Of a stretch of 64,000 nt of DNA, positions 42,845 to 49,856 are shown one piece after another (position 1 is the first letter of the stretch; the number at the start of each line of letters is the position of its first letter). The position numbers and the translations under genes are program-made. The notes under the pieces are model-generated. The model was not told the DNA's origin, made no database searches, and saw only the letters and a program-made list of their open reading frames with translations. Source of the stretch: Escherichia coli (GTDB lineage Bacteria; Pseudomonadota; Gammaproteobacteria; Enterobacterales; Enterobacteriaceae); assembly GCF_003334385.1 (NCBI RefSeq), contig NZ_QOWN01000003.1. The stretch is one strand, 5' to 3'.

Positions 42845-45637
<2,793 letters not shown>

Positions 45638-45638
<1 letters not shown>

Positions 45639-46219
45639 TACAACTTCACCAAACCACTAAAGCCCATAAAGGCCAGAGACATAAGACCTGCGGTAATTAA
45701 CGCAATGGCATTACCGCGAAAAGGTGCCGGGACATCAGCCACAGCAAGGCGTTCGCGGATGGCGGCGAAGAGCACCATCACCAGCGAGAAACCGACAGCG
45801 GCGGAAAAACCGTACAGCGCCGACTGCAAGAAATTGTGCCCGAGATTGATATTCAGCAACGCCACGCCGAGCACTGCACAGTTGGTGGTGATAAGCGGCA
45901 AAAAAATCCCCAGCAGACGGTAAAGCACCGGGCTGGTTTTGCGCACCACCATCTCGGTGAACTGCACGACCACAGCAATCACCAGAATAAATGCCAGGGT
46001 GCGCAGGTAAATCAGATTAAGTGGGATCAAAATCCACGTATCGATAAGCCAGGCGCAAATAGACGCTAGCGTCATCACAAACGTTGTTGCCAGCCCCATG
46101 CCCATCGCGGTTTCCAGTTTTTTGGAAACCCCCATAAACGGACAGAGACCGAGAAACTTGACCAGTACAAAGTTATTGACCAGTACAGTTCCGACAAACA
46201 GTAACAGGTAGTCAGTCAT
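45638..46219 (-). CDS. rsxA: Rnf/Rsx complex subunit A
   Basis: 193 aa membrane ORF, first gene of rsxABCDGE-nth. Confidence 0.9.
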
Positions 46220-46295
46220 TTTTCGGCCTGAAATAAAAAAGCCGCCTATTATCCGTTAATCCAGAGCAGGCGACAACAGGTTAACTGTAAGGTTA

Positions 46296-46736
46296 TTACG
46301 GATTCACAAACGTCGCTTTTACCCGCGACGAGCGTTTGAAATAGGGGACGATCAATGCGGTTGCCAACAAAGTAAACAGCAACTGGCGAACGGCTATGCC
46401 ATCTTCCACGGGTGAAAAAGCGAATGCTTTTACTGCCAGCAATACGGAAATAAGCAGCCAGATAATATAGTGTTTAGGAACACAACGCCGACGTTTAAAG
46501 AAAGCGATGGTCAACCACAGTGTGTAATACCACAAGGCGATAGCGGTAATAAAAGAAACGCCCCATAAGATTTGTGTCGTCAGTGCTTGTCCGCCGAGCG
46601 TTTGAAATGTTTGCGGAGAAGATAACGCAGCGGTATACAGCAACAACGCCAGCGTCGTACTCAACAGAGCGACTAAAAGCCAGGCCAACGGGCCAAGCAA
46701 CCAGCCTCCAATACGTTGTGGCGTTGTGGTGGTCAT
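46296..46736 (-). CDS. ydgK: inner membrane protein YdgK
   Basis: 146 aa from MTTTTPQRIGGW; track ORF extended 8 codons upstream. Confidence 0.75.
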   Translation of the reverse strand: MTTTTPQRIGGWLLGPLAWLLVALLSTTLALLLYTAALSSPQTFQTLGGQALTTQILWGVSFITAIALWYYTLWLTIAFFKRRRCVPKHYIIWLLISVLLAVKAFAFSPVEDGIAVRQLLFTLLATALIVPYFKRSSRVKATFVNP

Positions 46737-46821
46737 AGGTTCTCCAGAATAGCGACGCAAACAGGCAAATCTAATTTTAGGGGCGTTATTATAAGGCTTT
46801 TATAACCGATCGCTACTTTCT

Positions 46822-47037
46822 TTATTGGACATAGTGCCAGACGGACTTCGGTACCTGGCCGAGGTCAAACAAACGCCCGCCAGAAACCAGCTCTGCGCGA
46901 CGGTGATCGGCAGCACGATACATATTGATCAGTTCCTGATCGTCCGTCAGGGTGTAATTAAGATGGTCGTAGAGTTTTTCCAGACTTTCGAGTGAACTGA
47001 TTTTGCGAAATTTTAATAAGTAGTCCTGAACAGTCAT
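46822..47037 (-). CDS. cnu: Hha-family nucleoid-associated protein Cnu (YdgT)
   Basis: 71 aa, [26 protein letters not shown]. Confidence 0.85.
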
Positions 47038-47309
47038 AAAAGGTCCATAAAATAATTAATACCAAAGGGGTAGGTATTATTAGTGATGATAAAATTTCAC
47101 CAAAAGTGAACGCTTGTGTTATTACAATAATAAGAATGCGCTGATGGCAAATATTCAGGGATGAAAAACTGCTCTGAAAAGAGTAACGCGCTTTACTATC
47201 CCTGACAATCACCAACAACATCGAACAAGATAATAAATTCCTGGTTTAATATCCGACAAGTGAAAACATGCACCCGGACGGGCAGCATGTCGCTCCACAA
47301 GTGCAGAGC

Positions 47310-47435
47310 TTACTTGTGTTGTACCGAAGCACTCTGTTCAGGTGGCTGATAGTTGTCAATGTGACTCGCCACGCCAAGAAGAATGACTGAAACGACAAGA
47401 ACGATCCAACCTGTTAATTCAATAAGACGATTCAT
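47310..47435 (-). CDS. blr: 41-aa small membrane protein Blr
   Basis: Internal Met of track ORF 47310..47510: MNRLIELTGWIVLVVSVILLGVASHIDNYQPPEQSASVQHK, single TM helix. Confidence 0.6.
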   Translation of the reverse strand: MNRLIELTGWIVLVVSVILLGVASHIDNYQPPEQSASVQHK

Positions 47436-47677
47436 TACAGCCCACATCTCTCTTGATTGATCCATTAACTTCAGGGGGTAAATGTTACTTAGCAATAATA
47501 GCTCCAGCAAGATTTTTACTGAGGTTTTTGCGATATTTAGCTTTTGTCGTTGGAAAATTCGCTATTTTTTTGACTTAAGTTAAACAACATCCCTTATTGC
47601 TGGCAGGTTATTAAACTGTTGAGCGTGGGTAAAGGATAGTGTCAAATAGCCATCATACTTCAATGAGAGGCAATGAC

Positions 47678-48718
47678 ATGAGCGACAACATCCGTGTTGG
47701 GTTGATTGGGTATGGTTATGCGAGCAAAACCTTCCATGCGCCCCTGATTGCGGGCACGCCCGGGCTGGAACTGGCGGTAATCTCCAGCAGTGATGAAACA
47801 AAAGTAAAAGCCGACTGGCCAACGGTTACGGTTGTCTCTGAGCCGAAGCATCTGTTTAACGATCCCAACATAGACCTGATTGTCATTCCTACACCCAACG
47901 ATACCCATTTCCCGTTAGCCAAAGCGGCGCTTGAGGCGGGTAAACATGTGGTCGTTGATAAACCCTTTACCGTGACACTGTCACAAGCGCGAGAGCTGGA
48001 TGCGCTGGCAAAAAGCCTGGGGCGTGTGCTGTCTGTATTCCATAACCGTCGCTGGGATAGCGATTTCTTGACGCTAAAAGGTTTACTCGCGGAAGGCGTG
48101 CTGGGTGAAGTTGCTTACTTTGAGTCTCATTTTGACCGCTTCCGTCCGCAGGTGCGCGATCGTTGGCGTGAACAGGGCGGCCCAGGCAGCGGTATCTGGT
48201 ACGATTTAGCACCACATCTTCTTGATCAGGCCATTACGCTTTTTGGTTTACCGGTCAGCATGACGGTAGATTTGGCACAGTTACGGCCCGGAGCGCAGTC
48301 GACCGATTATTTCCACGCCATCTTGTCCTATCCACAGCGGCGAGTCATTTTACACGGTACCATGCTGGCAGCCGCTGAGTCAGCACGGTATATCGTGCAT
48401 GGATCCCGAGGCAGTTATGTGAAATATGGCCTCGATCCACAGGAAGAACGTCTGAAAAATGGCGAGCGTCTACCGCAGGAAGACTGGGGCTACGATATGC
48501 GTGATGGCGTACTTACCCGCGTGGAAGGTGAGGAACGTGTCGAAGAAACGCTGTTGACGGTGCCTGGGAATTATCCGGCTTACTATGCGGCTATTCGTGA
48601 TGCGTTAAATGGCGATGGTGAAAATCCGGTTCCGGCAAGCCAGGCAATCCAGGTAATGGAGTTGATTGAGCTGGGCATCGAATCCGCCAAACATCGCGCG
48701 ACTTTGTGCCTTGCATGA
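47678..48718 (+). CDS. ydgJ: Gfo/Idh/MocA-family oxidoreductase YdgJ
   Basis: 346 aa from MSDNIRVGLIGYGYASK (Rossmann motif); track ORF begins 13 codons upstream. Confidence 0.85.
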   Translation: MSDNIRVGLIGYGYASKTFHAPLIAGTPGLELAVISSSDETKVKADWPTVTVVSEPKHLFNDPNIDLIVIPTPNDTHFPLAKAALEAGKHVVVDKPFTVTLSQARELDALAKSLGRVLSVFHNRRWDSDFLTLKGLLAEGVLGEVAYFESHFDRFRPQVRDRWREQGGPGSGIWYDLAPHLLDQAITLFGLPVSMTVDLAQLRPGAQSTDYFHAILSYPQRRVILHGTMLAAAESARYIVHGSRGSYVKYGLDPQEERLKNGERLPQEDWGYDMRDGVLTRVEGEERVEETLLTVPGNYPAYYAAIRDALNGDGENPVPASQAIQVMELIELGIESAKHRATLCLA

Positions 48719-48750
48719 AAAATGGATGGTGCATTTGCACCATCCATTTT
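48719..48750. terminator. bidirectional terminator between convergent ydgJ and add
   Basis: AATGGATGGTGCA-TT-TGCACCATCCATT perfect 13-bp stem flanked by A-run and T-run. Confidence 0.55.
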
Positions 48751-48751
48751 G

Positions 48752-49753
48752 TTACTTCGCGGCGACTTTTTCTCGCAGTGCGCGTTTTTCCTCAGCGCTG
48801 AGGAAAGCCATTTCCAGACCATTAATCTGTGCCTGGCGGATTTGCTCGCGGGATAACCCAGCAGCTGGCGCGGCAACGGTATATTCGTGAATGATATCCA
48901 CTCCCTGTACGCCGGGATCGTCAGTGTTAATGCTGGCACGAATGCCATGCTCAAGGAACGTTTTCAGCGGATGTGCAGCCAGCTCTGCTACGGTGCTGGT
49001 CTGAATATTGGAGGTCAGACAGGATTCAATACCAATTTGTTGCTCGGCGAGAAAATCCATCAGCGCCCGATCTTCAATGGCTTTTACGCCATGTCCAATA
49101 CGCTCCGCACCCAGTTCACGAATCGCCTGCCAGATGCTTTCCGGCCCGGCAGCTTCGCCTGCATGGACGGTAATATGCCAGCCCGCATCACGCGCGCGGT
49201 TGAAGTGAGAAAGGAACAGACTTCCCGGGAAACCAAGTTCATCACCGGCTAAATCAAGTGCGGTAATCTGGTCACGGTGGGCTAAAAAGGCCTCCAGCTC
49301 TTGCTGACAGGCGGCTTCGCCGAAGGTCCGGCTCATAATGCCGATAAGCTTCGCCTGCACACCAAAGGTGCGGCAACCTTCACGTACGCCATCGATCACC
49401 GCTTCGACAACACCCGCTACAGGCAGCTGATGTGCCATTGCCATGTAGCCTGGTGAAAAACGCAGCTCGACATAGTGCAGGCCGTGACGGGCTGCATCTT
49501 CAATGTTTTCAAATGCCACGCGGCGACAGGCATCAAGAGAGGCGAGAACTTTAACGCCCCAGTCAAGTTTGGTCAGAAAGCTCACCAGATCGGGTTCGTT
49601 GGCAATGACCTGAACGTGGGGAATCAGTGTTTCCAGGGATTGTGCAGGAAGCGAGATATTATACTGGCGGCCAAGTTCAAGAATGGTCTGGGGACGAATG
49701 TTGCCATCAAGGTGGCGATGGATATCAGTTAATGGCAGGGTGGTATCAATCAT
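48752..49753 (-). CDS. add: adenosine deaminase
   Basis: 333 aa; N-terminal metal-binding HxH region (DIHRHLDG). Confidence 0.95.
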
Positions 49754-49856
49754 GGTCGCACTCTTTTTCTGGATATAAAAGTGCGCACCATTATAAAAAC
49801 AAAGCAGGGTAAAAATCCACGATTGCGCAACGATTTTTTACGTTGCGCAATTGGGG

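Follow-up and report, generated by a model that had tools for sequence, protein, structure and literature searches.

The gene blr lies on the minus strand at 47310..47435 of the window, by which we mean the whole stretch of 64,000 nucleotides analysed here. Read from the sequence, the Open Reading Frame (ORF) starts with the ATG at 47435 and covers 126 nt, which is 41 codons plus a TAA stop at 47310-47312 (MNRLIELTGWIVLVVSVILLGVASHIDNYQPPEQSASVQHK). In an E. coli genome with 100% identity, exactly these coordinates carry the RefSeq CDS blr (WP_001300888.1, "division septum protein Blr"); RefSeq annotates the gene in the same way in identical genomes and in K-12, and the CDS belongs to the families NF033231 and PF24673. 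A stretch of 701 nt around blr shows 100% identity to many E. coli chromosomes and was found in 5425 of 5426 complete E. coli genomes. Compared with Blr of E. coli K-12 (b4409, UniProt P56976), which is the same gene, there is no difference: the DNA is the same (zero differences across the 311 nt compared, CDS included), and so are the position between ydgJ and cnu and the 41-aa CDS. In the annotation of the window and of K-12, blr is placed between the divergent ydgJ and the downstream genes cnu/ydgT, ydgK and rsxA. The mechanical ORF list over-extends two of these genes, ydgJ (GTG 47639, plus strand, 359 aa, versus the annotated ATG 47678, 346 aa) and ydgK (TTG 46760, minus strand, 154 aa, versus the annotated start 46736, 146 aa).

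The same list reports a minus-strand ORF of 66 aa at 47310..47510, which begins with a TTG at 47510 and encloses blr. The first-pass annotation had described 47310-47435 as blr, with 41 codons, nested inside this longer call. The exact match to the annotated CDS and the family HMM scores given below bear out the identification, and the ORF from TTG bears out the nesting. In databases, this E. coli sequence is carried as a protein of 41, 45, 51, 61 and 66 aa. Codons are numbered here from the annotated ATG at 47435, which is codon 0.

An ORF of 41 codons is by itself not beyond chance, because 27 ORFs of at least 20 aa in the mechanical list overlap this 1.8 kb. We judged blr to be a real gene because of its conservation, namely the family HMM scores, 80 orthologous loci and a coding signature. 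The NCBIfam equivalog NF033231 (small_Blr) matches with 91.8 bits (cut-off 40) over model positions 1-40 of 40, and Pfam PF24673 (Blr_divisome) with 87.1 bits over model positions 1-41 of 41, covering residues 26-66 of the 66-aa ORF. The only other NCBIfam match to the blr peptide was KPN_two_small, which is sub-threshold (14 bits, cut-off 33).

Using one genome per GTDB species, the orthologue scan recovered loci from 80 species of Enterobacteriaceae, including Escherichia, Salmonella, Citrobacter, Enterobacter, Lelliottia, Leclercia, Kosakonia, Phytobacter, Kluyvera, Pseudocitrobacter and others. Divergent ydgJ adjoins blr upstream in all 78 loci compared for synteny, and cnu follows downstream in 66 of them. 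Thirteen residues are invariant in 78 of 78 loci and are all present in the window (R3, E6, G9, W10, A23 and H25-I-D-N-Y-Q-P-P32); this count leaves out the loci L005, L065 and L071, where the HIDNYQPP motif deviates (HIDNYHPP twice, QIDTYQPP once). The protein alignment gives the same invariant columns, except that the tryptophan is nearly invariant (one cysteine, in P0036). Despite these 13 invariant residues, the third codon positions of blr vary freely across the 78 loci, and the combination of the two indicates purifying selection on the protein. An intergenic ORF that encodes nothing might be proposed from the abundance of short ORFs in this region and from the weak Shine-Dalgarno (SD) sequence at both candidate starts. 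However, invariant residues with freely varying third positions over 78 species speak against it, as do the conserved synteny, the curated family models, and the published genetics and localisation (PMC2794547, PMC7648144, PMC10470546). We rejected the chance ORF on this conservation pattern and regard its probability as practically nil.

The encoded peptide contains a single transmembrane segment, located at 47370..47426 on the minus strand (residues 4-22 of the 41-aa form, LIELTGWIVLVVSVILLGV), with a Kyte-Doolittle maximum of 2.46 in a 19-residue window. In the hydrophobicity scan, a second hydrophobic segment was absent from both the 41-aa and the 45-aa forms, in agreement with the single helix noticed at first reading. 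A search of PDB sequences returned no solved relative of the peptide. The transmembrane segment is followed by the juxtamembrane motif HIDNYQPP (47340..47363, minus strand; residues 25-32), all eight residues of which are unchanged in the 78 loci while third codon positions vary. With the topology and the divisome role taken from the literature, Blr would be a bitopic inner-membrane peptide consisting of a short cytoplasmic N-terminus (NRLIEL), one transmembrane helix and a periplasmic tail that starts with HIDNYQPP. The periplasmic HIDNYQPP and the N-terminal NRxIELxGW are the obvious candidates for interaction surfaces.

According to the account in PMC2794547 (citing Wong 2000), Blr was found as an unannotated 41-aa protein that gives intrinsic beta-lactam resistance, and its loss is reported to raise beta-lactam susceptibility. 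Septal localisation of Blr is cited in PMC7648144, PMC10470546 and PMC2794547. In bacterial two-hybrid (BACTH) assays, as summarized in PMC7648144 (citing Karimova 2012), Blr interacts with 7 of 12 divisome proteins; that paper, which describes DrpB, cautions that some of the many BACTH partners of Blr are possibly false positives. Blr is thought to stabilise the divisome under stress, as stated in PMC10470546. Moreover, it is cleaved by the intramembrane protease RseP both in vivo and in vitro (PMC10470546). Other small single-pass proteins of the E. coli inner membrane that modulate larger complexes, such as MgrB, AcrZ, YmgF and DrpB, resemble Blr in size (under about 50-70 aa), in having one transmembrane helix and in binding larger membrane proteins; gene callers often overlook them or give them a wrong start (PMC12350097, PMC10723866, PMC7648144). 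However, no sequence relationship was detected, and Blr has its own invariant HIDNYQPP motif.

Upstream of blr, 150 nt were aligned from 33 species, and two conserved blocks, cTTGCyG and TAACAT, were found 17 nt apart. In the window, they correspond to a candidate -35 box TTGCTG at 47505..47510 and a candidate -10 box TAACAT at 47482..47487, both on the minus strand; the -10 box is kept as TANNAT across genera, 31-44 nt before the ATG of codon -4. A pair of the form TTGNNN-N16-18-TANNNT lies 31-44 nt before this conserved ATG in 69 of 78 loci, compared with about 5% of shuffled upstream sequences, and the spacer is 17 nt in 64 loci. The -10 hexamers are TAACAT (52), TAAAAT (5), TACTAT (5), TAAGAT (5) and others, including TAATAT. 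Only positions 3 and 4 vary, which would be the behaviour of a sigma-70 -10 box. The blr boxes were not flagged by the consensus promoter scan, because the -35 box fits only 3 of 6 positions, and the promoter was instead recovered by phylogenetic footprinting. We therefore infer, from conservation of the DNA, that blr has its own sigma-70-type promoter. In E. coli TOK-001 (L086, 452-1432), an IS5-like ISKpn26 element is inserted directly upstream of blr; the -35 box TTGCTG is replaced there and TAACAT is intact.

These blocks bear directly on the 66-aa ORF, because its TTG start codon is the TTG of the candidate -35 box and would therefore lie outside the mRNA. Most species have a leader of 33 or 39 nt, a length at which the -10 box contributes an in-frame TAA that ends the ORF. 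The long ORF is open in E. coli because a 34-nt leader puts this TAA out of frame, and the frame then runs back to the TTG of the -35 box. The 25-codon extension is interrupted by in-frame stops in Leclercia, Silvania, locus L030 and the Escherichia species other than E. coli; frameshifts break it in C. koseri, Lelliottia V86_10, C. amalonaticus and Pseudenterobacter, and 9 loci have AAG in place of ATG. The 66-aa form is the longest ORF at the locus, and automatic pipelines have deposited exactly this sequence on 303 contigs. However, its start codon belongs to the -35 element of a promoter pair that is kept from genus to genus, its frame is closed by the -10 box in most species, its extension is not conserved even inside Escherichia, codon -3 is TGA in 400 E. 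coli genomes, and the HMMs match only residues 26/27 to 66. That the ORF from TTG 47510 is a real gene is thus hardly credible, and the earlier view of the 66-aa call as spurious is upheld by the coincidence of the TTG with the -35 box and by the stops, frameshifts and AAG codons in the extension. The comparison with orthologues supported the first-pass annotation, with one caveat: the 25-codon extension as a whole, whose conservation would have refuted it, is not conserved, but its last four codons, MWAV, are.

Downstream, the terminator scan flagged a hairpin with a U tract at 47263..47289 on the minus strand, 21 nt after the blr stop codon. The region 47245-47312 (minus strand) folds with -25.8 kcal/mol (z = -3.45), and none of 200 shuffled sequences folds as well. 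This hairpin and U tract fit a monocistronic unit of roughly 200 nt, in which blr would be transcribed alone from the promoter at 47505-47510/47482-47487 to the hairpin at 47263-47289. An Rfam scan by E-value over 45000-50000 gave no match at the blr locus on either strand, and two sub-threshold matches elsewhere. One of them, at 48698-48756 (plus strand) in the 3' end of ydgJ, is to the Salmonella sRNA STnc390 (23.3 bits, E = 0.1; gathering score 50) and is probably due to chance. As a whole, the locus is best explained as the known gene blr, a monocistronic unit encoding a small inner-membrane divisome protein, and we hold this explanation with high confidence.

Between the candidate promoter and the coding region lies a conserved 5'-UTR block at 47458..47469 on the minus strand (TTAATGGATCAA in the window, TTTATGGATAAA in other genera, the majority form). 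It holds the ATG at 47465, from which a 51-aa protein (MDQSREMWAV...) could be read. PGAP annotates starts of this kind in many genomes of Salmonella and Citrobacter, with 53 aa in Enterobacter, and entries of 51 and 53 aa are common in databases; moreover, the ATG GAT block is conserved widely, and 34 of the 57 loci that carry it have an open frame leading from it into blr. However, AAG replaces ATG in 9 of these 57 loci, a stop precedes codon -4 in 10, and the frame is shifted in 4; the block is thus kept as nucleotides, independent of reading frame. All other Escherichia species carry a TAG at codon -5, directly before the next ATG, and the intervening residues are radically variable. The ATG at 47465 would also stand about 7-10 nt from the inferred 5' end of the mRNA, without an SD of its own. 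In the alignment, the block falls on the strong SDs AGGGAG/AAGGAG of Kosakonia, Phytobacter and Pseudescherichia (-7 to -8 kcal/mol), although the 12-18 nt between it and the conserved ATG are a long spacing for an SD. We rejected the 51-aa start, a very improbable one, since the block is kept as nucleotides and its frame is broken in many loci; the block itself is probably a degenerate ribosome-binding element.

A different assignment of the upstream blocks, with TAACAT as the -35 box and the ATGGAT block as the -10 box, was also rejected. The variants of TAACAT keep T1, A2, A5 and T6, which is a -10 signature, and no acceptable hexamer exists 16-18 nt further on. In Citrobacter koseri NCTC10786 (L008, about 1471-1500), the 51-aa database entry P0013 (MNQSKKMSSV...) corresponds to a reading from ATA, since the ATGGAT block is put out of frame there by one additional A; this suggests that P0013 is a mis-started entry.

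The remaining question is which of two ATG codons starts blr, the annotated one at 47435 (41 aa) or a second one at 47445..47447 (minus strand), which is codon -4 and gives in frame a 45-aa product, MWAV-MNRL... Generally, the upstream codon is the conserved one: codon -4 is ATG in 80 of 81 sequences, while codon 0 is ATG in only 30 of 81 and is ATT, ATC, ATA, TTC, TTT, GTC or TTG in the remaining 51. Codon -4 is accordingly the sole possible start in 50 of 81 sequences, and in Kluyvera ascorbata the TTG at codon 0 could in principle start too. Codon -1 always encodes V, I or L, with all synonymous codons used. Across codons -3 to -1, entropy is low at second positions and high at third positions, as in coding sequence, and this pattern ends sharply upstream of codon -4. 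Between two C. amalonaticus lineages the start is swapped: one has AAG at -4 and ATG at 0, the other ATG at -4 and ATC at 0. Because ATG is found at codon -4 in 80 of 81 sequences and at codon 0 in 30 of 81, and because the codons between them are coding-like, we take codon -4 to be the family-wide start. The ATG at 47447, giving the 45-aa form, is accordingly the ancestral start of the family, and it may still be used in this K-12-type strain.

For E. coli itself, other observations favour the annotated ATG. Among 5401 complete E. coli genomes, 400 (O157:H7 and a small number of others) read ATG TGA GTT GTA ATG in this region, with a stop at codon -3; they keep an intact 41-aa ORF, which is annotated blr. 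The annotated start is viable in E. coli because the stop leaves these 400 genomes with the 41-aa ORF only. The stop is nevertheless not decisive either way, since O157 could still use the codon -4 ATG through start-stop re-initiation. For example, in E. coli O157 644-PT8 and YZMc3-1 (L084 and L085), at the equivalent of 47436-47447 in the window, a one-codon start-stop mini-ORF ends 6 nt before the blr ATG; this mini-ORF may feed re-initiation or may simply mark the loss of the ancestral start. Moreover, codon -3 is TGG in Escherichia, encoding an atypical tryptophan, while other genera have S, T or A. Through this TGG the leader gains GAUGUGG, a weak SD-like element that precedes the annotated ATG by 6 nt. 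When RBS spacing was checked, the annotated ATG had -3.5 kcal/mol at 6 nt and the codon -4 ATG -3.1 kcal/mol at 12 nt, both of which are weak. Folding of the inferred leader gave no structure signal (z = 0.15) and does not separate the two ATGs. Nothing informative on blr was found in the supplements to PIRT-Seq, to the Stringer preprint or to the Salmonella proteoform paper. Both family models, Pfam and NCBIfam, start with the curated Met.

On these comparative data, we take the annotated ATG at 47435, with its 41-aa product, to be a functional start in E. coli, and we lean towards it as the main start there. The proposal that the main product of this strain is instead the 45-aa form from ATG 47447, with the curated start and both family models four residues short, is a strong competitor that we consider somewhat less probable. 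It draws on the near-universal ATG at codon -4, which is intact and in frame in the window, on the non-ATG codons at position 0 in 51 of 81 sequences, on the constrained codons -3 to -1 and on the start swap in C. amalonaticus. A strong SD is also present 9-12 nt before the codon -4 ATG in Kosakonia, Phytobacter and Pseudescherichia, and the 45-aa form of this exact E. coli sequence has already been deposited on 21 contigs. Against it stand the 400 genomes with the stop at codon -3, the radical tryptophan at that codon in Escherichia, and the SD-like block of the codon -4 ATG, which in E. coli is weak and 12 nt away. The 41-aa peptide named as the product by the first-pass annotation is accordingly accepted and viable in E. 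coli, but it need not be the sole product in this strain, where ATG 47447 is intact and in frame.

A broader form of the proposal can be stated for the family. The true N-terminus of the family would be M-x-x-(V/I), and K-12-type E. coli would make the 45-aa form alone or beside the 41-aa form. Escherichia would then be in the middle of a start-codon shift, completed in the O157 clade by the TGA at codon -3, and the reference annotation as well as the Pfam and NCBIfam models would lack the first four residues. We put this forward tentatively, as an account that falls a little short of an even chance, and keep ATG 47435 as the preferred main start in E. coli.

In summary, blr is already known, and the sole new element is a start conserved across the family four codons upstream of the curated one. 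The practical value lies in annotation: the comparative data explain the long forms in databases as artefacts that read through blr's own promoter, and the conserved family start differs from the curated start. The known biology of Blr is unchanged by this, although a four-residue cytoplasmic extension could matter for Blr constructs and tags.
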